This document shows, piece by piece, positions 16,648 to 38,207 of a DNA stretch of 64,000 nucleotides; position 1 is the first letter of the stretch; each line of letters starts with the position of its first letter. The notes under the pieces are model-generated. The model did not search any database and was not told the DNA's origin. It saw only the letters and a program-made list of their open reading frames with translations. The position numbers and the translations under genes were made by a program. Source of the stretch: Thermoanaerobaculia bacterium (lineage in GTDB: Bacteria; Acidobacteriota; Thermoanaerobaculia; UBA5066); assembly GCA_038245905.1 (NCBI GenBank), contig JBBRRY010000017.1, forward strand, positions 7,793 to 71,792. Reading direction: 5' to 3'.

Positions 16648-18453
16648 TCAGGCGCGGCGGAATGCGGCGGCGTGTGCCGATGCGTCGAATGTCCGAAGCG
16701 CGCCTTCGCGCCGCGCCGGGGGAGCCGCGGGAGCCTGAGGCACTGGCGCCGCCGGCTGAGGCGCGGGGGCCGGCGCGGAATGAGGCGCCTCGCGGGGAGC
16801 GGGTGCGGATTCCCGGTGGGTCACAGGAGCCTCGCGAGGAGCGGGCGCGGATTCCCGGGCCGGGGGCGCCTCGCGCGAGCGCTCGACCACGCGGGGCTGC
16901 GGCGCACGCCATCCCGAGTCGTCGTGACGAACCGGCCGTGCCTCCTCGACGCGCCTCGGAATCGGGGCCGGGGCCGGCGAGGAAGGGGAGCGCCACCCAT
17001 CGTCTCGAAGGCGTCGATAGGCGGGGTCCTGGCCAACGCGCACGGCGGTCTTCTTCAGCTCCTCGATCGCTGCCGGCGAAGGCGTGCTTTCGCGGCGGAG
17101 AATCGCCGTCAGGCCCTCGCTCACGGGAGCCCGGCGAGCGCTCTCGGCGCCTGGCAAACGGTGAAGCGCATCCTGGATCGACGCGGCCGGGTTTCCGCCA
17201 CGCTCGAAGCGGAGGGGAGTTGTCGCGATCGTCCCGATCTCACCGGGCCGGAAGCTCACGCGATCCCCGCGCACGATGTCCCGGGCCGGATCCAGCCGGA
17301 CGACGATCCGCCCGGACGGCACGTAGTTCCAGCCGCGCGGATCGATCTGCGAGACTGCGACACGCCCGCGAAGATGCGGGTAGACGGGAACGCGTCCGTC
17401 GCTGACGTTCACGCGGGCGTGCCGGGAACGGGGCTCCCACGAGCCGTAGGTCCCGATCGGGCACCAGCCTATCCAGCCGGGCGTGTAATTCCAGTAGACC
17501 CACGCGGGCGAGTAGTCGTCGCCGGGGCACCACATCCAGCCCAGCATCGAGTCGAAGACCCACGTCCCATAGTGGTACGGGAGCCATCCCCATGGCTCCG
17601 AAGAGACCCACGTGAGGCCCGCAGGCGTCCACCGCCAGTAACCGAGCGCGTACGGCGTCCAGCCGGCGCCCACGCGAGGCCTCCAGCAGGTGCAGCCACA
17701 CGTCGACGAGTACGTCCAGCTTCCAAAGTCGTCGAACGAGGCGTTGTCGTAGTCGTAGCCGAAATCCGAGGAGACGTAACGGGTCGTGTTGCGGCTGTCC
17801 GTCCGGTCGCGCCGTTCCTCGATGAACCGCGCGAAGCGGTCGCGCGGCGAAGCGGACACCTCCACCTCGACGTCGCCGTCGCTGCTCACGAACGCGTATT
17901 CGCCCGCGCGGACGAGGGCGCGTCCGGCCCGGCCCGAGACCTCGACCTTGCCCGACAGAGCGTAGATCTCCGTGCCGCGCCTGCCGGCGTCCACGCGGAA
18001 CAGCGCGCGCGAAGGCGCCAGGATCGTCGCGTCGTCCGTGTCGAGACGCAGGGCGCGCTCGCGCGTCGTCTCTCTCGCCGCCACGTCACGGACCTCGACC
18101 GCCACCGTGCCGCGCGCGAGGAAGAGGAGGTCACGGTCGTCTTCGGCTTCGTACGTGCGGGCCATCCGGTCGAAGCGCAGGTCCGTGTATCCGTCCACGC
18201 GCACCACGTTGCCGTCCGCGAGGACCGCTTCCGCACGCGACCCGACTCCCGTCACGAGGCTGTCTCCCGGGAGAACCGGCATGTTGATCCGGGCCGCGGA
18301 GTCGTCTTCGGCCTTCGAGAGCAGGGAGACGTCGGGCTGTACGTACGAGAGGTACGTGTAGCCCTCCCGCTGGGCGTCCGCGCGACCCGGCGCCAGGGCG
18401 GCGGCGAGAAGGGCGGCTGCGAGAGCGGTGGGCGCCGTCTGGCGGGCGTTCAT
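16648..18453 (-). CDS. secreted FecR-domain protein with W/Y/G-rich aromatic region and C-terminal Pro/Ala-rich tandem repeats
   Basis: internal Met followed by signal peptide (MNARQTAPTALAAALLAAALAPGRADA); FecR-like segment; WxxGW/YxxGW repeats; 3x ~42-nt DNA tandem repeat near 3' end. Confidence 0.7.
   Translation of the reverse strand: MNARQTAPTALAAALLAAALAPGRADAQREGYTYLSYVQPDVSLLSKAEDDSAARINMPVLPGDSLVTGVGSRAEAVLADGNVVRVDGYTDLRFDRMARTYEAEDDRDLLFLARGTVAVEVRDVAARETTRERALRLDTDDATILAPSRALFRVDAGRRGTEIYALSGKVEVSGRAGRALVRAGEYAFVSSDGDVEVEVSASPRDRFARFIEERRDRTDSRNTTRYVSSDFGYDYDNASFDDFGSWTYSSTCGCTCWRPRVGAGWTPYALGYWRWTPAGLTWVSSEPWGWLPYHYGTWVFDSMLGWMWCPGDDYSPAWVYWNYTPGWIGWCPIGTYGSWEPRSRHARVNVSDGRVPVYPHLRGRVAVSQIDPRGWNYVPSGRIVVRLDPARDIVRGDRVSFRPGEIGTIATTPLRFERGGNPAASIQDALHRLPGAESARRAPVSEGLTAILRRESTPSPAAIEELKKTAVRVGQDPAYRRLRDDGWRSPSSPAPAPIPRRVEEARPVRHDDSGWRAPQPRVVERSREAPPARESAPAPREAPVTHRESAPAPREAPHSAPAPAPQPAAPVPQAPAAPPARREGALRTFDASAHAAAFRRA
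16791..16890. repeat. ~42-bp tandem repeat (about 2.4 copies) inside the 3' end of the FecR-like gene, encoding REAP/RESAPAP units
   Basis: direct repeat ggagc(c/g)ggtgcggattcccgg... seen in sequence. Confidence 0.6.
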
Positions 18454-18619
18454 GTCGGGCCTCCGGGCCATCCTATGCGACCTCCGTACCACTATGGGCG
18501 GCGCCTCTCTCGTCCCCCCGCGGGGACGCTTGACCGCGCCCGGGAAGCCCTGCAATCTCAACGTGCTGGCCGACGCTCCTGAAAAGGGGAGAAGAGCCGT
18601 CCCGTCCTCCGGAGTGCAG

Positions 18620-19135
18620 GTGGCCATTCGAGAAATCGTCAAGTACGGGGATCCGCGGCTCGTCGCGAAGAACCGGGCCGTCGACGTGTTCGACGATCCC
18701 GGCCTCGCCGCCTTGCTTCAGGACCTGAAAGAGACCTGCTGGGCGGCTCCCGGCCTCGGTCTCGCCGCCCCCCAGATCGGGGTGAACCTCCGCGTCGCGA
18801 TCGTCGATCTCTCGATCGGGAAGGATCCGGCCCAGGTCATCGTGCTCGTGAACCCCGTCGTCGTGGACGTGCAGGGGCTCATTCGGGAAGAGGAGGGCTG
18901 TCTCTCCTTTCCCGACATGGTGGAGACGGTCGAGCGGCCCGAGAGAGTGACGGTGGAGGCCCTCGACGCCCTCGGAAAGAAGCAGACGTTCGACGGGCGA
19001 GACCTTCTCGCGCGGGCATTCTGCCACGAGGTGGACCACCTCGACCAGCGGCTCTTCGTCGACCGGCTCTCGTCCCTGAAGAAAGGCCTCCTGCTGCGCC
19101 AGGTCGTCAAACGCCAGAAAAGGGGGGTGTGGTAG
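18620..19135 (+). CDS. def: peptide deformylase
   Basis: GTG start gives MAIREIVKYGDPRL N-terminus; GxGLAAPQIG, EGCLS, HEVDHL motifs; GGAG SD 5 nt upstream. Confidence 0.9.
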   Translation: MAIREIVKYGDPRLVAKNRAVDVFDDPGLAALLQDLKETCWAAPGLGLAAPQIGVNLRVAIVDLSIGKDPAQVIVLVNPVVVDVQGLIREEEGCLSFPDMVETVERPERVTVEALDALGKKQTFDGRDLLARAFCHEVDHLDQRLFVDRLSSLKKGLLLRQVVKRQKRGVW

Positions 19136-19171: not shown

Positions 19172-20074
19172 CTACGCTCCGGCTTTCGCGCGCAGCTCGT
19201 CGACGAGGTTGAGCCGGTGGAGGGTGCGGCCGAGGTGCGCGGCGAACGCCATCAAATGCTCGAGCTCGGGTGATTCGCCTGGTGGAGGAAGCGGTCCGCG
19301 CCGATAGAGGCGCAGCGTGCCGAGGAGCTCCTTGCCGCCGAAGACCGGAGCGGCGGTGATGGTCCAGTCCGGGGTGGCATCGCCCGGGAGGCGCGGCGCG
19401 CGCGCCGTGCGCGGATCCTCGTCGAGGCCGAGCGTCGCGACGAAGCCGGGAGGACTTCCGCCCGGCCAGGTGCTGGAGGCGGCCGCGAGCAGGTCTACGT
19501 GGCCCGTGCGCCGCACGTGCAGCGTGACGCCGTCGGCGCCGAACACGGACGCGATCCGGTCGAGGATCGGGACGAGGAGGCGCGCCCGGAAGTCTTCGGT
19601 CGTGACGCCGTCCTCTTCGACCTTCGCGGAGATCTCCTGCTGCAGCTCGAGAATCTGCGTGCGCGCCGTGAGGGCGTCCAGTAGCTCCTTGATGCGAAGC
19701 GCGTTCTTCACGCGCGCCTTCAGCTCGCGGGCCGAGAACGGCTTCGTGACGTAGTCGTTCGCGAGCGCTTCGAAACCCTGCAGGAGGTCTTCCTCCTCAG
19801 TGCGCGCCGTTACGAAGATGACCTGCGTGCCCGCCGTCGCGCCGACGGTCTTGATCCGGCGGCAGACCTCGTAACCGGAGAGATCGGGCATACGCACGTC
19901 GAGGAGGACGACGTCGGGCCGGCGGGCGTCCACTTTCTCGAGGGCCTCGGTGCCGGACAGCGCGCTTTCGAAGTCGCAGCCCAGCTCGTAGGCGATGTAC
20001 GACGCCACCTCGGCCTGGTAAGGGTCGTCGTCCACGAGGAGGAGCAGGGGCGCGGAGGCGGGCGATCGGAACAT
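19172..20074 (-). CDS. response regulator receiver + GAF domain protein
   Basis: N-terminal REC (LLVDDDP...D...K) and C-terminal GAF-like region. Confidence 0.75.
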   Translation of the reverse strand: MFRSPASAPLLLLVDDDPYQAEVASYIAYELGCDFESALSGTEALEKVDARRPDVVLLDVRMPDLSGYEVCRRIKTVGATAGTQVIFVTARTEEEDLLQGFEALANDYVTKPFSARELKARVKNALRIKELLDALTARTQILELQQEISAKVEEDGVTTEDFRARLLVPILDRIASVFGADGVTLHVRRTGHVDLLAAASSTWPGGSPPGFVATLGLDEDPRTARAPRLPGDATPDWTITAAPVFGGKELLGTLRLYRRGPLPPPGESPELEHLMAFAAHLGRTLHRLNLVDELRAKAGA

Positions 20075-20201
20075 GGCGACCGAGGGTATAGCAGAACCAG
20101 GGAGCGATCAGGGAGCGCTTTTGCCTGGACCGACCTGCGACAGCGCGGATTCGACCCGATGCGCTAGCGAAATCCCTCGCGGTCGTCGAGAATCGCCCGT
20201 C

Positions 20202-21683
20202 GTGACTCTTCGCCTTTACAACACCATGAGCCGCTCGCTCGAGGAGTTTCGTCCCGTCTACCCGGGAAAGATCGGCCTCTACACATGCGGACCCACCGTC
20301 TACAACCGGGTGCACATCGGAAACCTCAGGACATTCGTCTGGGAAGACGTGATGTGCCGCGTCTTTCGCGCCCTCGGCTACGAGACGACCCAGGTGATGA
20401 ACCTCACGGACATCGACGACAAGACGATCCGGGGCGCGTTGGCCGCCGGGCTGCCGCTGCGCGCGTTCACGGACCTTCACATCGCGACGTTCTTCGAGGA
20501 CCTGAAGACGCTCGGCGTCGAGCCGGCGGCGCTCTATCCGCGCGCCACGGAGCACATCCCCGAGATGGTCACGATCGTCCAGAAGCTCGCCGCCCGTGGG
20601 CACACGTACGAGAGCGACGGATCGGTCTGGTTCCGGATCTCGACGTTCCCGGGCTACGGAAGTCTCTCTAAGATCGACCTCACGGCCGTGAAGCGCGGCG
20701 CGCGCGTGGCCGACGACGAGTACGAGAAGGAAGATGTGCGCGACTTCGCGGTATGGAAGGGAGCGAAGGAGGGCGAGCCCGAGTCCGCGACGTGGGCCAC
20801 GGCGCTTGGCCGCGGGCGGCCCGGCTGGCACCTCGAGTGCAGCGCCATGGCGATGAAGTACCTCGGCGAAACGCTCGACATCCACACGGGCGCCGTCGAC
20901 AACATCTTCCCGCATCACGAGAACGAGATCGCGCAGAGCGAAGGCGCGACCGGGAAACCGTTCGTCCATTACTGGCTCCACGCCGAGCACCTCCTCGTGG
21001 ACGGCGAGAAGATGTCGAAGAGCAAGGGGAACTTCTACACGCTTCCCGACCTCCTCGAGAGGGGCTTCTCTCCGCGCGCGATCCGCTACCTCCTCATCTC
21101 GGTCCCGTATCGGATGAAGCTCAACTTCACCTTCGACGGCCTGAAGGCCGCGACCTCCGCGGTCGAGCGGCTGGAGTCGCTCGACCTGCGGCTCAGGGAA
21201 AGAGAGAAAGAGAAGAACAGTTCTTTGAAAGGGGAAGAGGGGGGGAGAGAGGGATTCGAGGGGCGACTGGCGGAGGCGCGGCGTGCGGTCTTTGCCGCCC
21301 TCGAGGACGACCTCAACACGGCCGGCGCTCTCGGGGCGCTGTTCTCGTTCGTCAAGGCGACCAACGTCGATCTCGAGGCGGGCCATCTGTCGGCCTCCGA
21401 CGCAACCGCGGCGCGCGGTCTTCTCCATGAAGTCGCCGGGAACGTCTTCGGAGTCATTGAAAAGACCGCAGGCGACGATGCGCCCTCTTCACCTTCTCAG
21501 AAATCTTCATCCGAATCCCCCGAATCCGATGATGCGTGGATCCTGGAGCGCATCGAGGCCCGAAAGGGGGCTAGAAAGGCCCGGGATTTCAAGGCCGCCG
21601 ACGCGATCCGCGACGAGCTCCTGGGCAAGGGAGTCATCCTCGAAGACACGCCCCAGGGCGTTCGCTGGAAGAGGAAGCCTTGA
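20202..21683 (+). CDS. cysS: cysteinyl-tRNA synthetase
   Basis: HIGN and KMSKS class-I motifs; carries two AT-rich elements (21196-21256, 21483-21520) in the C-terminal domain. Confidence 0.9.
   Translation: MTLRLYNTMSRSLEEFRPVYPGKIGLYTCGPTVYNRVHIGNLRTFVWEDVMCRVFRALGYETTQVMNLTDIDDKTIRGALAAGLPLRAFTDLHIATFFEDLKTLGVEPAALYPRATEHIPEMVTIVQKLAARGHTYESDGSVWFRISTFPGYGSLSKIDLTAVKRGARVADDEYEKEDVRDFAVWKGAKEGEPESATWATALGRGRPGWHLECSAMAMKYLGETLDIHTGAVDNIFPHHENEIAQSEGATGKPFVHYWLHAEHLLVDGEKMSKSKGNFYTLPDLLERGFSPRAIRYLLISVPYRMKLNFTFDGLKAATSAVERLESLDLRLREREKEKNSSLKGEEGGREGFEGRLAEARRAVFAALEDDLNTAGALGALFSFVKATNVDLEAGHLSASDATAARGLLHEVAGNVFGVIEKTAGDDAPSSPSQKSSSESPESDDAWILERIEARKGARKARDFKAADAIRDELLGKGVILEDTPQGVRWKRKP
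21196..21256 (-). repeat. element, SD-like orientation (GAGAGAAAGAGAAGAACAGTTCTTTGAAAGGGGAAGAGGGGGGGAGAGAGGG), in cysS
   Basis: variant core TTCTTTGAA. Confidence 0.6.
21483..21520 (+). repeat. element, 16S-tail-like orientation (CCCTCTTCACCTTCTCAGAAATCTTCATCC), in cysS
   Basis: variant core TTCTCAGAA. Confidence 0.65.
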
Positions 21684-21685
21684 CA

Positions 21686-21697
21686 GTGGCGCGCCAC
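21686..21697. promoter_or_regulatory. perfect 12-bp palindrome GTGGCGCGCCAC immediately after cysS stop; half-site GCGCGCCACTGG recurs at 21731-21742 inside leader ORF
   Basis: seen in sequence; candidate operator or terminator element. Confidence 0.35.
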
Positions 21698-21718
21698 TTC
21701 GGGTCTACTTCCGGAGTC

Positions 21719-21760
21719 ATGATCTTCGTCGCGCGCCACTGGCACGTTCATCACACCTGA
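21719..21760 (+). CDS. candidate attenuation leader peptide MIFVARHWHVHHT (4 His + 1 Trp codons in 13)
   Basis: short ORF with GGAG SD, lying between cysS and the aro-his-trp supraoperon and followed by terminator hairpin. Confidence 0.55.
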   Translation: MIFVARHWHVHHT

Positions 21761-21832
21761 GTCGGCTGCGCCTCGCGCCGCCGGCCCATAGAGGTTCGGA
21801 GGCACGCGGGTTTTCCAACAAGGTCACCCCAA

Positions 21833-21861
21833 CCCCTCCGGATCGGAGGGGTTTTCGTTTT
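21833..21861 (+). terminator. attenuator or terminator hairpin CCCCTCCG-GAT-CGGAGGGG followed by TTTTCGTTTT, overlapping the TTG start of aroDE
   Basis: 8-bp GC stem + U tract; upstream segment 21796-21803 (TTCGGAGG) could pair with the 5' arm as anti-terminator. Confidence 0.6.
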
Positions 21862-23422
21862 GGTCCTCACCGCGGAGAAAACACTTCTCGTCGCGTCCCT
21901 CGCACCGGCTTCTAACGCCGAGGCTCTGGGGGGGCGCGCGGCTCTCGCCGACCTGCCTCCGTCGACGGCTGTCGAGCTGCGCCTGGATGCGATGACCGAG
22001 GCGCCTGCGTTCGGCGCGCTGCGCGCGTGCTTCGAAGGCAGAACGCTCATCGCAACCGTTCGATCCAAAGCCGAGGGCGGCGGGTTCCGGGGGAGCGAGG
22101 AGGAAGAGCGGGATTTCCTAGAAGGTGCCCTCTCTGCGGGCTTCGATCTCGCAGACGTTGAATTTCGCCGCGACCTTGGTACTCGCTTCGCCGGAATACC
22201 TCCTTCTAAGAAGATTTCTTCTCTCCACGACCCCGAAGGGGTACCAGCCGACCTCGACAGCGTCGTCTCGAGGATGCTCGCTTCCCCCTCGCGCTTCGTG
22301 AAAGTCGCGGCGACGGCAAACGATTCCGGCGACGCCCGCCGCCTTCTCGAGCTTCAGGCCGCGAACCCAGGGGGGCGCCTCACCGTATTCGGCATGGGCG
22401 AGGCCGGGATCGCCACGCGCGTCCTCTCGCCCTATCTCGGCGCGGCGCTCGCGTACGGGGCGCTCGTCCCCGGGCGCGCCACGGCACCCGGCCAGCTTCT
22501 TGCGCGCGACCTCAACGAGATCTACGGCGTCGGCTGCGCGCGGAGCGTCTCGCGGCTCTTCGGGATCCTGGGCGGCGTCGTCTCGCACTCCCTCTCTCCC
22601 GCTCTCCACAACGCGAATTTCGAGGCTCTCGAAGAGGACGCGCTCTACGTCCCGTTTGCGATGCGGATGCTCGGGAGGGAGCTCGAGCCCCTCGTCGCCT
22701 CCCTCGACGCGCTCGGCCTTCCTCTCGGGGGCGTCTCGGTGACGATCCCGTTCAAGGAAGAGGCCGCGCTCCTTTCGGGCGCGGCCGAGGGCGGCGAGAG
22801 GGCGGTCAACACGCTCCTGAGGTCGAGCGCCCCGGGCCTGCCGCTCCAGTGGCGCGCGGAAAACACCGACCGTGCGGCATTCGAGGCCGTGATTGAAGAT
22901 GCTTCCGAGAGAGGGAGAACCGAGACGAGCGCGAATGCGCGGGTGGCGATCGTCCTCGGGGCTGGTGGTACGGCACGGGTTGCCGTGGATGTTCTCCGAA
23001 AAAGGGGATTCGGAGTCTTTCTGGTGAACCGAGGCGAGGAGCGTGGCGAGGCGCTTGCGGCTGCCACGGGCGCCCATTACCTTTCTAATAAATCCTCGGC
23101 GCCGTGGCCCGAGGCTGGAGTCATCGTCAACGCGACGGCCCTCGGGCTTCTCCCGGGGGATCCTCTTCCCTGCGAGCAAAATATTCTCCGCCCCGGGATG
23201 CTCGTGATCGACGCGCCGTATCGCGCCGGCGGAACAGAGCTCGTCCGGGCGGCGCGCGCAGCGGGCGCGCGCGTCGTAGACGGCCAGACACTGCTCCTGC
23301 TTCAGGCCGCGGGCCAGGCAACGCTCTTCACCGGGCGGCAGACGAGCCCGCGGGATCTGCTCTCGCGTCTCGCGCCGCGCCTTCGCTCCCTGTTTTCGTC
23401 CTTCGAGGAGTTTTCTCCTTGA
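21860..23422 (+). CDS. aroDE: bifunctional 3-dehydroquinate dehydratase (type I) / shikimate 5-dehydrogenase
   Basis: N-terminal AroD-like and C-terminal AroE-like (NTD, GAGGTARV) halves; TTG start; elements at 22098, 22197, 23077. Confidence 0.8.
   Translation: MVLTAEKTLLVASLAPASNAEALGGRAALADLPPSTAVELRLDAMTEAPAFGALRACFEGRTLIATVRSKAEGGGFRGSEEEERDFLEGALSAGFDLADVEFRRDLGTRFAGIPPSKKISSLHDPEGVPADLDSVVSRMLASPSRFVKVAATANDSGDARRLLELQAANPGGRLTVFGMGEAGIATRVLSPYLGAALAYGALVPGRATAPGQLLARDLNEIYGVGCARSVSRLFGILGGVVSHSLSPALHNANFEALEEDALYVPFAMRMLGRELEPLVASLDALGLPLGGVSVTIPFKEEAALLSGAAEGGERAVNTLLRSSAPGLPLQWRAENTDRAAFEAVIEDASERGRTETSANARVAIVLGAGGTARVAVDVLRKRGFGVFLVNRGEERGEALAAATGAHYLSNKSSAPWPEAGVIVNATALGLLPGDPLPCEQNILRPGMLVIDAPYRAGGTELVRAARAAGARVVDGQTLLLLQAAGQATLFTGRQTSPRDLLSRLAPRLRSLFSSFEEFSP
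22098..22134 (-). repeat. element, SD-like orientation (GAGGAGGAAGAGCGGGATTTCCTAGAAGGTGCCCTCTC), in aroDE
   Basis: variant core TTCCTAGAA. Confidence 0.55.
22197..22227 (+). repeat. element, 16S-tail-like orientation (ACCTCCTTCTAAGAAGATTTCTTCTCTCC), in aroDE
   Basis: exact core; 14/15 match to CCTCCTTTCTAAGGA. Confidence 0.7.
23077..23098 (+). repeat. element (TTACCTTTCTAATAAATCCTC), in aroDE
   Basis: variant core TTCTAATAA. Confidence 0.5.
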
Positions 23423-25050
23423 AGATCGAGCGGCCCGACCCGAACCTGCCGCGAGGCGTGCAGGCATTTCTCTTCGACGCGGCCGAGCGCCGCCGGAAGG
23501 CGGAAGACTCGGTCGTGCGACGGCTTCAGGAGGCCGGTCTGCGTGAGGTGATTCTCCCCGTCCTGGATTTCGCGGCCCCCTATGCCGGCGTGACGGCCGA
23601 GGGAGACGATCGCCTTTATCGGTTCCTCGACCGGCAGGGGAATACTCTGGCGCTTCGGGCGGACTTCACGCCGATGGCGGCGCGCGTCGTGGCGCCACGG
23701 CTCAGCGCGCTCTCCGGAGCCGTCTCCCTCTTCTACCGCGGAGACGTCGTGCGCGACGAGGAGACTGGTGTCGGGCGCCGGCGCGAGTTCGCGCAGGTCG
23801 GCGCAGAGCGTTACGGCGATGGCCGCCCGGAGGCCGACGGCGAAATGCTCGCGCTGGCTCTCTCCTGCCTCGGAGATCTTCCGGCCGAGCGCCTCAGGCT
23901 CACCCTCGGCTGGTCGGGCCTCCTGGAACGCCTGCTCGCCATACTCGCCCCGGGACTCGAAGTGAACGGCGCGTCCGAACTCGCCGTTGCCTTGTCGGCC
24001 GCGCGCGCGCGGCACATCACGGAGCTGGAGACGCGGCTTTCGACCGCGGGCGCCGCGCCGGCCGTCGCTGCGGAAGCCGCCCGGGCCCTCCTCGTCGGCT
24101 TCGACCCCTCTTCCGATCTCTTCCACTCGACTGCCCTTGCGGGCGCGGCCGCGGAGCTCGCGCGCGCGGTCGCAATTGCGAGGGCCGCCCGGCCCGGTCT
24201 CTCGGTCGTCGTCGACCTTGCCGACACTCCCCAGGCCCCCTATTACACGGGGCTCACGTTCAGCGTGGACGCCGCGAGCGGGGGCGGCACGATTGCCGGA
24301 GGCGGACGGTACGACGGCCTCCTCGGGCGTTTCGGCACGGCGGCGCCCGCGCTCGGCTTCTGTATCGGCCTCGAGGCTCTCGGTGCTGCCGCCGATGTAA
24401 CCGAGAGAGACGCGCGCCCTCTCCGAATCGCGGTCGGGAAGGGCCGGCTCCTGCCGCAGGCGCTCGAGGCGCTCGACGCCGGAGGCGCCTCGTTCGGCGA
24501 GCCGGACGGCCGGCGCCTTCTCGTGCTTTCCTCGGACGGCGCGTTCGAGCTGCTTCTCCTCAAGGACGACGACGTCCCGACCTACGTGGCTCACGGTGGC
24601 GCCGACCTCGGGATCGTGGGGAGCGACCGCGTCCTCGAGAGCGGCGAGGACGTGACCTCCCCCGTGGAGCTTCCGTTCGGCGCCTGCCGCCTCTCCCTCA
24701 TCGGGCGGGCGGGGGAGCCGTTCCGCCCGAACGGCGCGCCCGTTCGCGTGGGAACGAAGTACCGCCGCCTCGCGGCCCGCTATTTCGATGAGCGGAAGAT
24801 CGCCCATGAGATCGTCCCGCTCGCGGGTTCGGTCGAGCTCGCTGCCGCGCTCGGGCTCACGGACGTCGTCGTGGACCTCATCGAATCTGGCTCCACGATG
24901 GCCGCGAACGGTCTCGCCGAGATCGAGACCATCCTCACGAGCCGCGCGACCCTCGTCCTCGGGCGTTCCGCGCTCATCGCCCGCCGGGCCGAGATCGCGG
25001 AGTTCGTCCAGCGCCTCAGGGCTCATGCGGGCAAGGCGCTGACTTCATGA
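23419..25050 (+). CDS. hisZG: fused ATP phosphoribosyltransferase regulatory subunit HisZ + short-form catalytic HisG
   Basis: N-terminal 330 aa HisZ-like (class-II aaRS-like), C-terminal ~210 aa HisG(S) (RIAVGKGRL...LVLSSDG...); single continuous ORF; TTG start overlapping aroDE stop. Confidence 0.75.
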   Translation: MKIERPDPNLPRGVQAFLFDAAERRRKAEDSVVRRLQEAGLREVILPVLDFAAPYAGVTAEGDDRLYRFLDRQGNTLALRADFTPMAARVVAPRLSALSGAVSLFYRGDVVRDEETGVGRRREFAQVGAERYGDGRPEADGEMLALALSCLGDLPAERLRLTLGWSGLLERLLAILAPGLEVNGASELAVALSAARARHITELETRLSTAGAAPAVAAEAARALLVGFDPSSDLFHSTALAGAAAELARAVAIARAARPGLSVVVDLADTPQAPYYTGLTFSVDAASGGGTIAGGGRYDGLLGRFGTAAPALGFCIGLEALGAAADVTERDARPLRIAVGKGRLLPQALEALDAGGASFGEPDGRRLLVLSSDGAFELLLLKDDDVPTYVAHGGADLGIVGSDRVLESGEDVTSPVELPFGACRLSLIGRAGEPFRPNGAPVRVGTKYRRLAARYFDERKIAHEIVPLAGSVELAAALGLTDVVVDLIESGSTMAANGLAEIETILTSRATLVLGRSALIARRAEIAEFVQRLRAHAGKALTS

Positions 25051-26357
25051 TGAAGATCGTCGACGCGGATACGCTTGCGGGCAAGAAGGAGCTGGAGCGG
25101 TTGCTAAAGAGCCGCCGGGGAGCCGCTCCTGACTTCGCGACGCTGAAGCAGGTCCTGCCGATCGTGGAGGATGTTCTGCGAAGAGGGGAGCCTGCGCTCC
25201 GGAAATACGTGAAGTGCTTCGACCCGTTGCGCGGCGCCCCTTCTTACCCTTCTAAGAAGCTCTTGATCACTCCCCGACGTGAGGAGTCTTCTCGGGTGGA
25301 TCCGGCGTTTCAGGCGGCGTTTGTCTTCGCCCGCAAGCGCATCGAGGCTTATCACCGCAAGCAGCTCTCGTCCGTCTCGCCGGGTTTCTCCTTCAAGGAC
25401 TCTCTCGGCGTCTCCTTCGTGGAGAGGCCCACGCCGTTCGATTCGGTGGGCGTCTATGTGCCCGGGGGCCGCGCCTTCTATCCGTCCTCGCTTCTCATGG
25501 GGGTCGTGCCCGCGCGCGTCGCGGGCGTCAGGCGAGTCGTCGTCGCGACGCCGCGCGGGGCGTGGGCGTCGAGCCCCGAGCTCCGGTGGGCGGCGGCCGA
25601 GCTGGGAGTCGACGAGGTGCTCCTCGCGGGAGGGGCCCACGGTATCGCCGGCCTCGTGTCCGTCGCGGGCGTCGCGAAGATCGTCGGCCCCGGGAACCGG
25701 TTCGTCGCGGCGGCGAAGCACCTCGTCTCGGGCCTCGTGGCGGTGGACATGCCGGCAGGGCCTTCGGAAGTCGCAATCCTCGCGTCGGCCGATGCGGACC
25801 CGGCGCTCGTGGCGGCGGATCTTCTCGCGCAAGCGGAGCACGATCCCGACGCAAAGTGCTTGCTGTTTACGAGCTCGAGAAGGCTGGCGGACGCCGTTCG
25901 ATGCGCGGCGCTCTCGCAGATGGATGCCTTCGAAGAGGATTCTTCTTTGATGGTGATGAGAGCGGCCTTGCGCCGCGGTGGGCGGATCTTTCTATTCAAA
26001 GAAATCTCCCGCGCCGCGTCGGCCTGCGCTGCCGTGTTCGCGGAGCACGTTCAGGTCATGGGCCGGTCTGTCGAGCGCTCGGCGGGTTCTCTCTTTCCCG
26101 CTGCCGGAACCTTGTTCATTGGCCCGTCGACGCCGACCGCGCTCGGGGACTACGTCCTCGGCCCGAATCACGTACTGCCCACAGGCGGTGCCGCGCGCAG
26201 CTTCTCGGGTCTCTCGGTGCGCGACTTCCTGCGCTGGGGGCGATCGGTCTCGGCCCCCGTGAAGGCGGCCCGCCGCCTCGCGCCCGCGGCAGCGGTCCTG
26301 GCGCGATTCGAAGGTCTCGTCGCCCACGCGAGCGCGCTCGACCGGAGAGTCCGGTGA
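25047..26357 (+). CDS. hisD: histidinol dehydrogenase
   Basis: 436 aa HisD; ATGA overlap; AT-rich elements at 25238, 25927, 25986. Confidence 0.88.
   Translation: MMKIVDADTLAGKKELERLLKSRRGAAPDFATLKQVLPIVEDVLRRGEPALRKYVKCFDPLRGAPSYPSKKLLITPRREESSRVDPAFQAAFVFARKRIEAYHRKQLSSVSPGFSFKDSLGVSFVERPTPFDSVGVYVPGGRAFYPSSLLMGVVPARVAGVRRVVVATPRGAWASSPELRWAAAELGVDEVLLAGGAHGIAGLVSVAGVAKIVGPGNRFVAAAKHLVSGLVAVDMPAGPSEVAILASADADPALVAADLLAQAEHDPDAKCLLFTSSRRLADAVRCAALSQMDAFEEDSSLMVMRAALRRGGRIFLFKEISRAASACAAVFAEHVQVMGRSVERSAGSLFPAAGTLFIGPSTPTALGDYVLGPNHVLPTGGAARSFSGLSVRDFLRWGRSVSAPVKAARRLAPAAAVLARFEGLVAHASALDRRVR
25238..25277 (+). repeat. element (CCCCTTCTTACCCTTCTAAGAAGCTCTTGATCACTCC), in hisD
   Basis: exact core. 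Confidence 0.7.
25927..25960. repeat. degenerate element (CCTTCGAAGAGGATTCTTCTTTGATGG), in hisD
   Basis: TTCGAAGAG variant; orientation ambiguous. Confidence 0.4.
25986..26010 (+). repeat. degenerate element (ATCTTTCTATTCAAAGAAATCTCCC), in hisD
   Basis: TTCAAAGAA variant. Confidence 0.45.
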
Positions 26358-27421
26358 CCGGCCGGCCCATCCCGGTCCGCGAGGAGATCCGGTCGCTCAG
26401 GGCCTATCGCCTCGAGTCCGAGGACGCCCCCCCTCTCCGAGCGAAGCTGGACTTCAACGAGTCGCCGTTCGACGTGCCCGAGGAAATCCGCGCGGAGGTC
26501 CTCGCGCGCCTCGCGGCGAAGAGATGGGGCCGCTACCCCGAGTTCGGCGCGCCGCGTCTGAAGAGGGCGGTCGCCGAGGCGATTGGCCGGCGGCCCGAAG
26601 AGATCGTGGTCGGCAACGGGTCTGGTGAGGTCCTTCTCGCGGCGGTCTCCGTCTTCGCGGGGGGCGGCTCTCTCGTCCTTCCGACGCCCACGTTCTCGCT
26701 CTACGGACAGATCGCGGCGATCGCGGCGGCCCGCGTCGTGGACGTGCCGCGCACGGGGCCGGATTTCGAGCTCGTCGAGGACGCATTTCTCGCCGCGGTG
26801 TCCCGGCCGCACGCCGTTCCTCTCGTCTGCTCGCCGAACAACCCGACGGGCGGCGTCGTACGGCGGGAATTCCTGGAGAGGCTGCTCACGGCCGCGCCCG
26901 TCGTGCTCCTCGATCAGGCCTACGTGGATTTCGCGGGGCCCGGCGACGACGGCCTCTCGCTCCTCGATGCCTATCCGAACCTCGTCGTCTTCCGGACGCT
27001 CTCGAAGGCGTACGCGGCCGCGGGCTTCCGGATCGGGTACGCAGTCGCGCCGCCGGAGCTCGCGCGGGAGATCGAGAAGGCCGTCCTGCCGTTCAGCGTC
27101 GACCTCGCGGCCGAGGAGTTGGCGGTCGCCGTCCTCGGGCGTCCAGAGGTTGCGCGGGCCCACCTGGGCAAGATCGTGGCCGAGAGGTTGCGCGTGGCCG
27201 CGGCGCTCACGGCGGCCGGCTGCCTCGTGGCTTCGTCGTCCGCAAATTTTCTCTTCGTGCGTCCGCCGGGCGGCCAGGCGGAGCCGGTCCGCCGGGCGCT
27301 TCTCGACAGGGGAATCCTCGTGCGCGAAATGACCGCGGCGGCGCCCGGGCGCCTCCGTGTTTCGATCGGATCCCGTGAGGAGAACGATCTTTTCCTCGAA
27401 GCGCTTCGGGAGGTGTTATGA
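26354..27421 (+). CDS. hisC: histidinol-phosphate aminotransferase
   Basis: class-II aminotransferase motifs (NPTG, SKAY..G.RIGY); GTGA overlap with hisD. Confidence 0.88.
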   Translation: MTGRPIPVREEIRSLRAYRLESEDAPPLRAKLDFNESPFDVPEEIRAEVLARLAAKRWGRYPEFGAPRLKRAVAEAIGRRPEEIVVGNGSGEVLLAAVSVFAGGGSLVLPTPTFSLYGQIAAIAAARVVDVPRTGPDFELVEDAFLAAVSRPHAVPLVCSPNNPTGGVVRREFLERLLTAAPVVLLDQAYVDFAGPGDDGLSLLDAYPNLVVFRTLSKAYAAAGFRIGYAVAPPELAREIEKAVLPFSVDLAAEELAVAVLGRPEVARAHLGKIVAERLRVAAALTAAGCLVASSSANFLFVRPPGGQAEPVRRALLDRGILVREMTAAAPGRLRVSIGSREENDLFLEALREVL

Positions 27422-28014
27422 GCAGGGTCGGAACAGTCGAGCGGAAGACGAAGGAGACGGACGTGTCCCTGTCGCTGACGCTCGACGGAGCGGGGCGAAC
27501 GGACGTGACTACGCCCGTCGGGTTTCTCTCCCACATGCTCGAGACGATCGCGAAGCACGCGCGCGTCGATCTCACGGTCCGGGCGTCGGGCGACGTGCAC
27601 ATCGACGCCCACCACACGGTCGAGGACGTCGGCCTCGCCTTCGGCGAGGCGCTGGCTCAGGCCCTCGGGTCGCGCGCGGGAATCGAGCGCTTCGGCGAGA
27701 GCCTCGTGCCGCTCGACGAGGCTCTCGCGCGTTCGGTCGTCGACCTCTCTGGCCGGCCGTACATCGTGTTCGAGTCTCCCATCGACAAAGAGCTCCTCCT
27801 TGTCACGAACGACTTCCCGTTCGCGCTCGTCGAAGAGTTCTGGAAGTCCGCGGCGTTTCGCGGCAAGTTCAACCTCCATGTGGACGTGATCCGCGCCCGG
27901 AACGGCCATCACGCGGCCGAGGCTGTCTTCAAGTCGGCCGCGCGCGCGCTGCGCCAGGCCATGACGATCACGGGCTCAGAGGTTCTCTCGACGAAAGGGA
28001 CGCTGACGGCATGA
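27418..28014 (+). CDS. hisB: imidazoleglycerol-phosphate dehydratase
   Basis: 198 aa IGPD (HHTVEDVG..). Confidence 0.92.
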   Translation: MSRVGTVERKTKETDVSLSLTLDGAGRTDVTTPVGFLSHMLETIAKHARVDLTVRASGDVHIDAHHTVEDVGLAFGEALAQALGSRAGIERFGESLVPLDEALARSVVDLSGRPYIVFESPIDKELLLVTNDFPFALVEEFWKSAAFRGKFNLHVDVIRARNGHHAAEAVFKSAARALRQAMTITGSEVLSTKGTLTA

Positions 28015-28640
28015 GCGAAGCCCCCGCGCCGGTGGTCACGCTCGTGGACTACGGGGTCGGTAACACGGCTTCCGTCATCCGCGCCTTCCGCCGGCTCGGC
28101 GCCGAGGTGGACTTCACGGCCGATCTCGACCGGGTCGCGGCCGCCCGCCGCCTCGTGCTGCCCGGCGTCGCCGCGTTCGCCCCGGCGATGAACCGGCTGC
28201 TCGAGACCGGCCTCGAATCGGCCGTGCGGGCAGCCGTGAAGCGGGGAGGGCGTCTGCTCGGGCTCTGCCTGGGTTTTCAGCTTCTCTTCGAAGAAAGCGA
28301 GGAGCACGGCGTTCACCGGGGGCTCGGCCTCGTGTCCGGCCGTATCCGGCCCTTCCCGGGCAGCGTGCGGTCGCCTCACGTGGGCTGGAACCGGCTCCTC
28401 ACTCGCCGGCCGGACGGTTTCGTCGCGGGGCTTCAGGACCGGAGCTTCGTCTACTTCGTCCATTCCTTCAGACCCGAGGGCGCCGAAGCCGCGGACGTCG
28501 CGGCGGCCTGCGACCACGGCGGAGAGTTCCCGGCGATCGTGCAGCGCGGGAACGTCTGGGGTTGTCAGTTCCACCCGGAAAAGTCGTCGGAGAACGGCCG
28601 GCTCCTGCTCTCGAATTTTCTCGAGGGGGATCCGGCGTGA
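28011..28640 (+). CDS. hisH: imidazole glycerol phosphate synthase glutaminase subunit
   Basis: class-I GATase (GLCLGFQLL...H..E); ATGA overlap. Confidence 0.9.
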   Translation: MSEAPAPVVTLVDYGVGNTASVIRAFRRLGAEVDFTADLDRVAAARRLVLPGVAAFAPAMNRLLETGLESAVRAAVKRGGRLLGLCLGFQLLFEESEEHGVHRGLGLVSGRIRPFPGSVRSPHVGWNRLLTRRPDGFVAGLQDRSFVYFVHSFRPEGAEAADVAAACDHGGEFPAIVQRGNVWGCQFHPEKSSENGRLLLSNFLEGDPA

Positions 28641-29422
28641 ACGGCGGCCGGCTTGCGCTGTGGCCCGCGATCGACCTCATGGGCGGCCGCGTGGTCCGGC
28701 TGCTCAGGGGCAAGCGCGAGGCCGTGACGTTCTACGACGAGCAGCCTTCCGAGGCCGCGAGGCGATTTGCGGCGGAAGGCGCCGACGGCATCCACGTGGT
28801 GGATCTCGATGCGGCATTCGGAACGGGGGACAACGAAAGCAATCGGAAAGAGATTGAAGAAATACTTTCTGTTTCGGAGGCTTCCGGGGTGGCAGTGCAA
28901 GTCGGGGGAGGGCTGCGCGCCACCGCGGCCGTCGAAGATTTCTTAGAAGGGGTGAGTACCGCTAGGGCAGTTGTCGGCAGCCTGCCGTTCCTCGACCGCC
29001 CCGCGTTCACACACCTTCTAAGAAAATCTTCCTCTTCCGTCTCGGCCCGCATCGTGGTGGCCCTCGATTGCAAGGATGGCCGTCCGACCGTCCGCGGCTG
29101 GACCGAGGACGCGGGAGCGGGTGACGCCGTGTCCGTGGCACGCGAGATGTGGGGCCTCGGCGTCCGGGCGCTCCTCGTCACGGACGTCGCGTGCGACGGG
29201 GCCATGACGGGCCCGAATCTCGAACTCCTCGCCGGAGTGCGCGCCGTCTTTCCGGGCGAGATCCTGGCGTCCGGCGGCATGCGAGGAGAACGGGATCTCG
29301 ATCCGGTCGACCGCACGCTCGCGGGTGGGCCCCGCGGCGCCATCTTCGGCCGCGCATTGCACGGCGGAGTCACCACCATGGCGAAGCTCAAGGCGGCGCG
29401 CGACCTCGGGAGGCCTTCATGA
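28637..29422 (+). CDS. hisA: phosphoribosylformimino-5-aminoimidazole carboxamide ribotide isomerase
   Basis: HisA fold (AIDLMGG...VQVGGGLR); contains complementary element pair at 28935-28960 / 29012-29039. Confidence 0.88.
28935..28960 (-). repeat. element, SD-like orientation (GATTTCTTAGAAGGGGTGAGTACC), in hisA
   Basis: exact core TTCTTAGAA; near-complement of 29012-29039. Confidence 0.7.
29012..29039 (+). repeat. element, 16S-tail-like orientation (CACACCTTCTAAGAAAATCTTCCTCTTCC), in hisA
   Basis: exact core. Confidence 0.7.
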
Positions 29423-30852
29423 CCCTCGCCGTCCGCGTCATCCCGTGTCTGGACGTCTCGGAAGGCCGCGTCGTAAAGGGCGTCTCGTTCGAAAATCTCC
29501 GCGACGCGGGAGATCCGGTCGAAGCGGCCACGCGCTACGAGGCCGAGGGGGCCGACGAGGTGGCTTTCCTCGACATCGCGGCCGCGCACGAGAAGCGAGG
29601 GACGTTCGTGGGGCTCGTGGGGCGCGTGGCCGAGGCGCTGTCTATTCCCTTCACCGTCGGCGGCGGCGTGCGTTCCGTGGAGGACGCGGACGCGCTCCTC
29701 AAGGCCGGGGCCGACCGGGTCACGGTGAACACAGCCGCGGTCGAGGACCCTTCCCTCATCACGCGCCTCTCCGAGCGGTTCGGAGCGCAGTGCGTCGTCG
29801 TCGCAATCGACGGAAAGAGGCTGCGCGATCCGAACGGCCTCGCGGTGATGCGCGTGACGACTCACGGGGGGAGGCGGCCCGTAGACCGCACGGTCACATC
29901 CTGGGCGGCCGCGGCGGCGGCAGCAGGAGCCGGCGAGATTCTGCTCACGTCCGTCGACGCGGACGGCACCCAGGCGGGGTTCGATCTCGAAATGCTCCGC
30001 GCCGTTCGCTCCGTCGTGGATGTGCCGGTCGTGGCCTCGGGAGGCGCGGGCCGGCTCGAAGACTTCGCGAAGGCGGTTCTCATCGGGGGCGCCGACGCCG
30101 TGCTCGCGGCGTCCGTCTTCCACGACCGCGTCTTCACGATTGGCGCGGTCAAGGAGGCGATGCGGCGTGCCGGCCTCGTCGTGCGCCCCGCTCCGGCCCG
30201 CGCACGTACGCTGCTTCCCCGCTACGACGAGAACGGGCTCGTGCCCGTGATCATGCGGGACGTCGCGACCGGCAGGGTCCTCACGCTCGCGTGGGCGAAC
30301 GCGGACGCGATCGCAAAGACCCGCGAGACCGGCCTCGCGCACTTCTACAGCCGGTCCCGGAAGTCCCTGTGGCGGAAGGGGGAGACGTCGGGGAACATCC
30401 AGCACGTCGCGGGAATTTCCCTCGACTGCGACGACGATGCCGTGCTGTACGACGTGCGCCCGTCGGGTCCCGCCTGCCACACGGGAGCGGAATCGTGCTT
30501 CACGCGCGTGGAGAGCTTCGACTCCTTCGACGTCCATGGCGCAGTCGCCGACGGGCTCGACCTCACCGAACTGTTCGCCGTCGTGAGGAGCCGGAAGGAA
30601 TCGCCGGTCGCCGGCTCGTATACGAGCAAGCTCTTTGACGACGGAATAGCGCGCATCGCACAGAAAGTGGGGGAGGAAGCCGTCGAGACGGCGCTCGCCT
30701 CGGTGACAGGCGACGGCAATGCGCTCGCGGGAGAGGCGGCCGATCTTCTTTATCACCTCGCGGTCCTGCTCACGGCGCGCGGCGTCGCACCGGGCGACGT
30801 CGCCGCGAAACTCGCTGAGCGCCGAGGCGCCGCGAGGCGCGAGAAGCCGTGA
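29419..30852 (+). CDS. hisFIE: triple fusion: IGP synthase cyclase HisF + PR-AMP cyclohydrolase HisI + PR-ATP pyrophosphatase HisE
   Basis: HisF ([17 protein letters not shown]), HisI ([15 protein letters not shown]), HisE ([17 protein letters not shown]) in one ORF. Confidence 0.82.
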
Positions 30853-32225
30853 GGAATCTCCACCGCCTCGTCGTGGTCGAGAGGCCGGCGGACCTTACGA
30901 CGCCCGTTGCGCTCATGAAGGGCCTTCTTGCCGGCGAGGGGCCGTGCTTCCTTCTCGAATCGGTCGAGGGGGGCGACCGCGTGGCGCGGTGGTCCTTCCT
31001 CGGGGCGTCGCCCTCGGGAGAGATCTCCGGCCAGGATACGGATCCGTTCGCCGCCCTCCGCGCGCTGCCTCGCGGCGAAATGGCGGCAGGCGGGGACGAC
31101 CTCCCTCCCTTCACGGGCGGAGCCGTCGGTTACGCGGGCTACGACGCCGTGAGGCGCCTCGAACGCCTCCCCGAAACGAACCCGGACCCGATCGGGCTGC
31201 CGGACGCGTGGTTCGGGATCTTCGACGCGGTCATCGCGTTCGACCATGTGCGGCACCGCCTTCTCTTCGTGACGCATGCCGAAGAGGGCCGGGAGGAAGA
31301 GGCGCGCGCTCGTCTGCACGCGCTCGAGGCGCGCACCCTCACCCGAGGTGGTGAAACGCGCACAGAGACTCTCTCTTCTCTTACCTTCAAAGAATCTTCT
31401 CCTCGTTCCTCCTACATCGCGGCGGTCGAGCGCGCGAAGGAGCACATTCGGGCGGGCGACGTGTTTCAGGTCGTCCTCTCGCGCCGCTGGTCCGCACCCT
31501 TCGACGGCGACGCCTTCGCTGTCTACCGCGCGCTCCGGTCCATCAGCCCGTCGCCGTACCAGTACTTCCTGAGGACGCCGCACGGCGCGATCTTCGGAGC
31601 CTCGCCCGAGCGACTCGTGCGCGTCGCGGCGGCCCTCGGCGGCGCGGCCGTGGAGACGATTCCTCTCGCCGGCACCCGCGCGCGCGGCGCGACGCGCGAA
31701 GAGGACCTCGCCCTCGAGAAGGAGCTCCTCGCGGACCCGAAGGAGCGCGCGGAGCACGTGATGCTCGTGGATCTCGGGAGAAACGACCTCGGCCGAGTCG
31801 CGAAGGCCGGGAGCGTGCGCGTGGAAGATTTTTTCCGCGTCGAGCGCTATTCCCACGTGATGCACATCGCCTCGCGCGTGACCGGCGTTCTCGCCGAGGG
31901 GAAGGACGCCGTCGACGCTCTCGTGGCGACGTTTCCGGCCGGGACGCTTACGGGAGCGCCGAAAATACGCGCGATGGAGATCATCGAGGACCTCGAGCCG
32001 GTGCGGCGCGGCGCCTACGGCGGCACCGTGGGCTACCTCGACTTCGCCGGAAACCTCGACGTGGCTATCGCGATCCGCACGGCGGTCGTCGCGAACGGCA
32101 TTCTCCACGTGCAGGCCGGCGCCGGCATCGTCGCCGACTCCGACCCCGAGGCCGAAGCGACCGAGTGCGAGAACAAGGCCCGTGCTCTCATGGGCGCCGT
32201 TGCGAAGGCGGGGACGTACCGATGA
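30849..32225 (+). CDS. trpE: anthranilate synthase component I
   Basis: 458 aa TrpE; GTGA overlap; AT-rich element at 31366-31414. Confidence 0.88.
31366..31414 (+). repeat. element (CTCTCTTCTCTTACCTTCAAAGAATCTTCTCCTCGTTCCTCC), in trpE
   Basis: variant core TTCAAAGAA. Confidence 0.6.
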
Positions 32226-33828: not shown

Positions 33829-33878
33829 GAGGAGTAAGAGGGAGAGAAATTTCTTAGAAAGGGTAAGAGGAAGAGGGG
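33826..33878 (-). repeat. element, SD-like orientation (GGAGTAAGAGGGAGAGAAATTTCTTAGAAAGGGTAAGAGGAAGAGGGG), intergenic trpD-trpC, doubling as trpC RBS
   Basis: exact core; most complete copy. Confidence 0.75.
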
Positions 33879-37418: not shown

Positions 37419-37419
37419 C

Positions 37420-38184: not shown

Positions 38185-38207
38185 GCTAACACGTTACGGG
38201 GATTCGG

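Follow-up and report, generated by a model that had tools for sequence, protein, structure and literature searches.

Most of what is known of classical attenuation comes from Proteobacteria, Actinobacteria and some Firmicutes. Leaders that carry codons for more than one amino acid are known from the ilvGMEDA, ilvBN and thr attenuators, and in Bacillus subtilis an aromatic supraoperon (aroFBH-trpEDCFBA-hisC-tyrA-aroE) is controlled by TRAP. This supraoperon is discussed in PMC1173090, histidine leader peptides are on record for Proteobacteria, Firmicutes and Actinobacteria (PMC9413887, PMC2965389, PMC1262725), and leaderless polycysteine short open reading frames (ORFs) attenuate downstream operons in mycobacteria (bioRxiv 10.1101/834739; PMC4633059). 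In the literature searched, with most subscription journals outside its scope, neither a mixed His/Trp leader nor an acidobacterial his-trp operon was found. The locus considered here lies in a 64,000-nucleotide stretch of contig JBBRRY010000017.1 (assembly GCA_038245905.1) from a Thermoanaerobaculia bacterium of the Acidobacteriota, hereafter the window, where a short intergenic region behind cysS precedes a supraoperon of 14 genes (21860-37418, forward strand) that by Pfam assignment serves His and Trp synthesis and includes aroDE. With a probability of about 0.85, we read this intergenic region as a ribosome-mediated transcription attenuator with two amino-acid inputs, in which one stalled ribosome probably reports a shortage of either His or Trp. 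Its features, with those of the two flanking genes, are as follows:

20073-21683, forward strand: cysS, with its TGA stop codon at 21681-21683
21680-21685, forward strand: putative -35 box TTGACA, conserved, which holds the cysS stop codon
21684-21859, forward strand: intergenic stretch between cysS and aroDE, 176 nucleotides (nt)
21704-21709, forward strand: -10-like hexamer TCTACT, 18 nt past the -35 box and 9 nt ahead of the leader ATG
21719-21760, forward strand: leader ORF MIFVARHWHVHHT, 13 codons, from ATG (21719) to TGA (21760)
21761-21771, forward strand: segment 1, the 5' arm of hairpin 1:2, beginning right after the leader stop
21774-21787, forward strand: segment 2, which pairs with segment 1 (via 21775-21785) or segment 3 (via 21774-21787)
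21793-21806, forward strand: segment 3, of which GGUUCGGAGG (21793-21802) is the antiterminator arm and the full stretch pairs with segment 2 as anti-antiterminator
21808-21829, forward strand: small variable hairpin inside the antiterminator loop, predicted there in most relatives, its sequence unconserved
21832-21844, forward strand: segment 4, comprising the terminator 5' arm (21832-21840) and loop, with 21835-21844 pairing with segment 3
21844-21852, forward strand: segment 5, the terminator 3' arm CGGAGGGGU, containing the Shine-Dalgarno (SD) sequence of aroDE, GGAGG (21845-21849)
21852-21861, forward strand: terminator U tract UUUUCGUUUU, overlapping the aroDE start codon
21860-23422, forward strand: aroDE (Pfam), a fused dehydroquinase and shikimate dehydrogenase with a TTG start at 21860-21862

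Amongst described systems the nearest is hisL of Escherichia coli and Salmonella (RF00514), with which the element, as we read it, shares a short ORF with His codons, an overlapping chain of helices registered by ribosome position, termination when translation is complete or absent, and a Rho-independent terminator before the first structural gene (the first his gene in hisL). Whereas hisL has seven consecutive His codons, here three to four His codons are interleaved with one to three Trp codons; segment 1 begins downstream of the regulatory codons instead of containing them, an SD sequence is lacking, neither sequence nor covariance model shows any similarity, and the operon also makes Trp and includes aroDE. 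The trp leaders of E. coli (trpL, RF00513), Corynebacterium and Streptomyces likewise run to some 14 codons, those for Trp being close to the end, use mutually exclusive antiterminator and terminator helices and have trpE downstream (Actinobacteria: PMC1262725, PMC4833913). They differ in that the window has a single Trp codon (two or three in other clades) flanked by His codons, with trpE 9 kb downstream behind the his genes, and in that no model match is found. In the ilv and thr leaders several charged-tRNA pools are similarly read by one ribosome, but these combine the products of one branched pathway (Ile/Val/Leu or Thr/Ile), whereas the pathways joined here are separate and share only phosphoribosyl pyrophosphate (PRPP); His and Trp would be paired in one leader because two operons have been fused. 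With the mycobacterial short ORFs the leader shares an apparent start at the 5' end, the lack of an SD sequence, a wealth of cognate codons and its place as first cistron of a biosynthetic operon, yet those belong to another phylum, their start has been mapped whereas ours follows from promoter spacing, and here a canonical terminator and antiterminator come after the ORF. The B. subtilis supraoperon also co-transcribes aro, trp and a his-pathway gene and so couples histidine to aromatic synthesis, but with one his gene and TRAP in place of a whole his pathway and, by inference, a leader peptide. Searches against Rfam gave no match in the window at gathering score and only chance-level matches at E<=10 in 21500-22000, the His_leader (RF00514) and Trp_leader (RF00513) models matching in neither case. 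The element would work like enterobacterial his and trp attenuators, yet it stands outside their Rfam families.

The names borne by its nearest protein matches put the organism in class Thermoanaerobaculia of the Acidobacteriota. For comparison, one genome per species was scanned with an aroDE alignment, supplemented by a metagenome scan (which added few useful loci) and by look-ups of trpE homologues. Sequence upstream of aroDE was thereby available for 50 loci that carry the labels Thermoanaerobaculia, Holophagales or Acidobacteriota and whose aroDE is 47-90% identical to that of the window. The terminator hairpin of the window, CCCCUCCG-GAU-CGGAGGGG at 21833-21851, with an A-U pair extending it to 21832-21852, is the top terminator-like site in 20000-38500 (stem 21831-21853, 10 pairs of which 7 are G-C, followed by the U tract), which bears out the strong terminator overlapping the aroDE start that had been proposed from the window alone; in all relatives a U tract of 9-11 nt stands directly behind a G+C-rich stem. 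The antiterminator arm GGUUCGGAGG (21793-21802) pairs with CCUCCGGAUC (21835-21844) over 10 base pairs, two of them G-U. An upstream UUCGGAGG had been suggested to pair with the terminator 5' arm, and does so, albeit from 21795-21802 and not from 21796-21803. The elements thus form two mutually exclusive states, an antiterminated one (1:2 with 3:4) and a terminated one (2:3 with 4:5). The original prediction had described a leader of three elements, all of which are present, but the switch has five segments and possibly a sixth within the ORF ('segment 0'), whose leader codons pair with segment 1 in most minimum-energy folds. The region 21684-21870 of the window folds better than its shuffles (z -3.8), and all four helices form in 40 of 40 sequences tested, which span about eight sequence clades, with mean energies of -19.9 (1:2), -22.7 (2:3), -26.9 (3:4) and -17.7 kcal/mol (4:5). 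The corresponding values for the window are -18.3, -14.7, -21.8 and -16.4 kcal/mol, such that the antiterminator competes thermodynamically with the terminator (-21.8 vs -16.4), as it had been proposed to check.

Linked changes between clades run along the whole chain: where segment 3 reads CCGGAGG, segments 4, 5, 2 and 1 read CCUCCGG, CCGGAGG, GCCGG and CCGGC, and where it reads CCGAGGG they read CCCUCGG, CGAGGGG, GUCGG and CGACG, respectively. A plain MAFFT alignment, fitted to neither structure, allowed RNAalifold to recover the 3:4 core with GC<->AU swaps but only five of its pairs, because the register differs between clades; sequences were therefore realigned to two covariance models. 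In these alignments, which are fitted to each structure and hence biased toward it, the antiterminated state has 90.2% of cells paired and both-side changes in 12 of 20 pairs, and its covariation (0.313 vs 0.134 shuffled; best slid control 0.084) is reached by 0 of 500 shuffles. For the terminated state the figures are 88.3% of cells paired, both-side changes in 9 of 19 pairs and a covariation of 0.157 (0.119 shuffled; best slid control 0.115), again reached by 0 of 500 shuffles. By helix, compensatory changes occur in 8 of 10 pairs of 1:2, and both-side changes in 4 of 10 pairs of 3:4. Read comparatively, the covariation supports both alternative folds.

The aroDE SD lies inside the terminator 3' arm, in an arrangement that is conserved (GGAGG or GAGGGG is kept 8-10 nt ahead of TTG in relatives), and the TTG itself lies in the U tract, so the terminator fold would also block initiation of aroDE translation and the antiterminator would free it. 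This raises the question of whether control might be exerted at translation only, with a hairpin that hides SD and start codon, a leader ORF that sets their exposure and no regulated termination; attenuators with a sequestor in place of a terminator are indeed known (PMC9413887). A pure sequestor needs no conserved U tract, however, even if part of the tract here doubles as start codon, and the uninterrupted presence of that tract behind a G+C-rich stem, at the best terminator-like site of the operon region, renders this explanation improbable. The two levels of control are in any case not mutually exclusive.

The second body of evidence for a transcription attenuator with His and Trp inputs comes from the leader ORF. 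In the window MIFVARHWHVHHT holds four His codons and one Trp codon, as originally described, the regulatory codons being H7, W8, H9, H11 and H12. A short ORF of 11-17 codons occupies the same position in all 50 loci, which reduce to 38 different DNA sequences encoding 33 peptides, and it keeps its His and Trp codons in every one of these relatives, their conservation having been put forward as a check on the idea. All 38 distinct leader ORFs contain one to three Trp and three to four His codons, which against the background in supraoperon proteins (W 0.6%, H 1.9%) is more than chance. Peptides from relatives include MIFVARHWHVHHS, MTSASRHWHSHHT, MLARHWHGHHT, MTFAPVLWHWHHG and MRRFQVRWHWHHG, together with MANVAQLSWHWHHG, MKLSLWHWHAHHI, MFLTSWHWHWHHG and VSNASRSRHSWHWHGHR. 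In nearly all loci a single codon separates the W/H block from the stop, and the ORF conserves its frame, start and stop as the codons of the N-terminal half drift freely. Such drift, a codon before the stop that takes 16 different forms, synonymous exchange at His codon -3 (CAT in 20 and CAC in 15 of the 38 distinct leaders) and the use of three stop codons (TGA 19, TAG 11, TAA 8) make up the signature of a hungry-codon leader and not of a functional peptide.

That signature bears directly on the suggestion that the product is a nascent-chain arrest or effector peptide, acting like TnaC or in trans like peTrpL, and sensing a small molecule in place of hungry codons. Trans-acting leader peptides do exist (PMC7298713), and the motif R-H-W-H-x-H-H is well conserved in the closest clades. 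Across clades, however, all that persists is a W/H composition placed ahead of the stop, with motifs as different as HWHVHH, WHWHH, WHWHWHH, SWHWHGH, HHHYGWWHH and YYWWHY; the stop-proximal residue is free, as its 16 codons attest, and composition follows the content of the operon, all of which makes an arrest peptide very unlikely. Still less probable is a switch set by a protein or by uncharged tRNA (TRAP-, T-box- or PyrR-like) in which the small ORF is incidental. It has precedents, since TRAP controls the B. subtilis aromatic supraoperon and T-boxes control his and trp genes of Firmicutes (PMC9413887), but Rfam gave no match at gathering score, the T-box model (RF00230) included, in the window or in loci L069, L072, L075 and L076; GAG/UAG repeats, a specifier loop and a T-box motif are absent, and the ORF conserves its frame, start and stop amid drifting N-terminal codons.

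A third line of evidence concerns the putative promoter and the start of translation. TTGACA is invariant in every locus having upstream sequence. In most relatives the cysS stop falls within it (T-TGA-CA), six bases being common to the gene's end and to the promoter that follows, and the hexamer is also kept in L035/L069, where cysS ends 40 nt earlier, and in L072, L074, L075 and L076, whose upstream gene is not cysS. The layout of TTGACA, 17-18 nt, a -10-like hexamer (TCCAAT, TTCAAT, CAGAAT, CACTAT, CAGTAT or TTTACT in relatives), 7-9 nt and ATG recurs throughout, with a distance from the start of the -35 box to the start codon of 39 nt in 37 of 39 loci and 36 nt in the other 2 (38-40 nt in L070/L071). 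On this basis the pair of boxes is the putative promoter of the leader. The pattern TTGAC[AT]-N29-36-ATG/GTG occurs only at the leader site on both strands of the 64-kb window, and no other leader of the same design was found there by this pattern. The GGAG preceding the ORF, originally taken for its ribosome site, is present at 21713-21716, but it sits only 2 nt from the ATG and is missing from the other 39 distinct upstream sequences, and was accordingly rejected as an SD sequence; no SD core at a usable distance from the leader ATG was found in any of 40 distinct upstream 20-mers. Fixed promoter-ATG spacing and the lack of an SD suggest that the leader ORF is probably translated leaderless, the parsimonious reading being a transcript that is leaderless or has at most a 3-nt leader. 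We consider such a start, taken together with the exact segment logic, to be likely. The promoter spacer of the window also holds a perfect 12-nt palindrome, GTGGCGCGCCAC (21687-21698), which is not conserved in relatives; this region, with 21684-21694, could pair with leader codons at 21731-21741 if cysS transcripts read through. The long helix 21684-21694 : 21731-21741 that appears in the fold of 21684-21870 was rejected as part of the switch, since its 5' arm belongs to the promoter spacer, shows no conservation in relatives and probably falls outside the transcript.

That the hairpin is simply an ordinary terminator of cysS with a chance upstream ORF, as its position behind cysS, in the same orientation and without an intervening terminator, might suggest, is already contradicted by the comparative data and hardly credible, given a conserved promoter and W/H ORF between cysS and hairpin in 50 loci, the same design behind unrelated upstream genes in L072, L074, L075 and L076, and alternative helices that covary.

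What is observed directly are the features of the sequence and their conservation, together with covariation and competing energies; from these we infer where transcription starts, where ribosomes stall, the direction of regulation and the read-through, in the following scheme. Transcription would begin at or a few bases from the leader AUG, driven by a promoter with the cysS stop inside its -35 box, and the leaderless mRNA would be translated into a 13-codon leader that places the His and Trp codons immediately upstream of segment 1. With charged tRNA-His or tRNA-Trp scarce, the ribosome would stall on H7-H11 and leave segment 1 free, whereupon 1:2 would form, 3:4 would antiterminate, RNA polymerase would enter aroDE-his-trp and the aroDE SD would be exposed. 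With both tRNAs charged, the ribosome would reach the stop codon and cover segment 1; 2:3 and the terminator 4:5 would form, transcription would end at the U tract holding the aroDE start codon, and the SD would be sequestered. Untranslated RNA would terminate as well, because the leader codons would then pair with segment 1 or 3. Either starvation alone would thus derepress all 14 genes, an OR logic. With the corrections noted above, the original prediction of a single leader peptide with His and Trp codons controlling the combined operon finds support in the conserved ORF and the competitive antiterminator.

The dependence of the fold on ribosome position was modelled by masking the RNA from its 5' end to 13 nt beyond the A-site codon and calculating the equilibrium probability of the terminator, P(terminator), on the full leader in 47 sequences. 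Its mean comes to 0.92 when no ribosome is present and to 0.97 when the ribosome sits on the stop codon, a position at which 47 of 47 sequences exceed 0.5; in 29 of the 47, the window included, stalling at one or more W/H codons brings P(terminator) under 0.5. Within the window the values are 0.86 for a stall at H7, 0.88 at W8, 0.47 at H9, 0.07 at H11 and 0.96 at H12. As modelled, this is the pattern of classical three-state logic, in which untranslated RNA terminates, a stalled ribosome permits read-through and completed translation terminates.

Several points weigh against a dual-input attenuator of this kind. Firstly, in addition to the bias of the fitted alignments, every sequence derives from a metagenome-assembled genome (MAG). 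Secondly, the terminator is favoured at every stall position in 18 of 47 sequences, mostly of the WHWHH clade, and is likewise dominant at equilibrium in 5 of 6 leaders from other lineages, so that in these sequences and leaders the switch must be assumed to be kinetic. Thirdly, a stall at the last His codon resembles the stop-codon state, transcripts cut before segment 5 always fold the antiterminator at equilibrium with no discrimination by ribosome position, and a crude sequential lock-in simulation was noisy, did not discriminate ribosome positions either and was left unused. Pairing between leader codons and segment 1 is no stronger than in shuffles (mean z -0.9). Finally, a strict sigma-70 scan calls no promoter here, the -10 hexamer being weak; the scan misses it because the hexamer lacks an A at position 2.

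The operon that the element would govern has the content originally claimed for it, a combination of aro, his and trp genes, on the evidence of Pfam assignments and of an identical 14-gene order after cysS in L069, L070 and L071. Behind aroDE it consists of:

23419-25050, forward strand: hisZG (Pfam), a hisZ-hisG fusion of a HisRS-like regulatory subunit and a short-form ATP phosphoribosyltransferase
25047-26357, forward strand: hisD (Pfam)
26354-27421, forward strand: hisC (Pfam)
27418-28014, forward strand: hisB (Pfam)
28011-28640, forward strand: hisH (Pfam)
28637-29422, forward strand: hisA (Pfam)
29419-30852, forward strand: hisF-hisI-hisE fusion (Pfam)
30849-32225, forward strand: trpE (Pfam)
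32222-32791, forward strand: trpG (Pfam)
32788-33828, forward strand: trpD (Pfam)
33879-35390, forward strand: trpCF, a trpC-trpF fusion (Pfam)
35380-36603, forward strand: trpB (Pfam)
36600-37418, forward strand: trpA (Pfam)

With gene starts picked via 4-nt overlaps, 11 of the 13 junctions show such an overlap (ATGA, GTGA or TTGA type), a pattern expected of a single translationally coupled operon; trpCF and trpB overlap by 11 nt, and the sole gap, of about 50 nt, lies 5' of trpCF. Four gene fusions occur within the supraoperon (aroD-aroE, hisZ-hisG, hisF-hisI-hisE and trpC-trpF), and in the distant locus L072 hisZ and hisG are unfused, the fusion is between hisA and hisF, and hisIE is preceded by a true hisS. 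No terminator-like site was found downstream of trpA up to 38500, and the supraoperon may therefore extend further. An ORF of about 250 amino acids without Pfam match (37420-38184) begins 2 nt past the trpA stop and is followed by a RodZ-like HTH_25/RodZ_C protein (38208-39035) and another ORF without Pfam match (39075-40097); all three are kept after trpA in L069, L070 and L071. Upstream of cysS lie a divergent response regulator with a GAF domain (19172-20074, reverse strand) and a peptide deformylase gene (18428-19135, forward strand), neither with an evident link to the attenuator.

Beyond the 50 loci, distant lineages in which aroDE is only 33-36% identical carry the same design in different sequences, with a TTGACA promoter, an ORF without SD, overlapping helices and a terminator U tract that reaches the aroDE start. 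Leaders and operons in these and other lineages combine as follows:

L046/L072, L073, L074 and L057: leader ending ..LHHHYGWWHHLS or ..LHHGWWHHRS, operon aroDE-hisZ-hisG-hisD-C-B-H-hisAF-hisS-hisIE-trpE
L075 and L039: leader ending ..ALYYWWHYR or ..ALYYWWYTS, operon aroDE-hisS-trpEGDCFBA-chorismate mutase-3-deoxy-D-arabino-heptulosonate 7-phosphate (DAHP) synthase, with no his biosynthesis genes
L076: leader ending ..RFHWWWHSHS, operon aroDE-hisS-trpEGDCF
L043 and L077: no leader, aroDE-trpE overlapping an upstream transglutaminase-like gene

In the first of these groups, a distant acidobacterial lineage, the mixed leaders MNMNVHALHHHYGWWHHLS, MNGSSYVPTLHHGWWHHRS or MRTSSYALHHHYGWWHHLS stand before aroDE-hisZ-hisG with their own promoter, terminator and overlapping helices (L046 3739-3798, equivalent to L072 about 9838-9897; L057 422-481; L074 upstream of 6742). 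The Tyr/Trp-rich leaders MNHENYAALYYWWYTS and MTNERNAALYYWWHYR and the Phe/His/Trp leader MFSMHADRFHWWWHSHS head aroDE-hisS-trp operons that lack his biosynthesis genes (L039 389-439; L075 6729-6779; L076 9816-9869), and the operon of L075 runs on into chorismate mutase and DAHP synthase. In two Thermoanaerobaculia MAGs (L043 3740-6578; L077 9327-12831) aroDE is followed directly by trpE with no intergenic leader, the remaining trp genes of L077 not being adjacent. Short tandem repeats also occur beside these operons or between genes within them, namely TTTTCAA x6 in L039 (296-339), CTGCCTT x4 in L057 (upstream of 420), TTGAGAA and CAATTTT/CAATTCT runs around the hisS-trpE gap of L076 (12716-12920); in L072 a 310-nt gap with inverted repeats stands ahead of hisS (18112-18422).

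Trp codons are found in leaders wherever there are trp genes, His codons are abundant in company with his genes, and Tyr codons accompany operons for the aromatic pathway in general. A codon-sensing mechanism would be expected to produce just such agreement of leader codons with operon content, seen here in a sample that is small and uncorrected for kinship. His codons (CAY) and Tyr codons (UAY) are one transition apart. Taken across lineages, these leaders point, at slightly better than even odds, to a family of leader-peptide attenuators, probably leaderless and responsive to several amino acids, placed at the front of aroDE-led supraoperons in Thermoanaerobaculia and related Acidobacteriota, with a codon set re-programmed as genes are gained and lost. 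The re-programming seems to yield His and Trp codons where his and trp operons are fused, and Tyr and Trp codons (with or without His) where hisS, trp genes, chorismate mutase and DAHP synthase are present.

A dual-input attenuator at this locus would extend leader-peptide control to an uncultured acidobacterial class, and would couple two separate PRPP-consuming pathways, those of His and Trp, through a single sensor because his and trp operons are fused behind aroDE. If the transcript is leaderless, the coupling of transcription to translation would start at the first nucleotide. The agreement between leader codons and operon content across lineages offers a testable record of how attenuator specificity is rewired and, should the family reading prove true, these loci would provide a natural series for the evolution of attenuator input specificity, with a single ribosome serving as OR gate between two unrelated pools of amino acids. 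Leaders of this type are unannotated in MAGs, and could help to predict where operons of uncultured bacteria begin and end and how amino acids regulate them.

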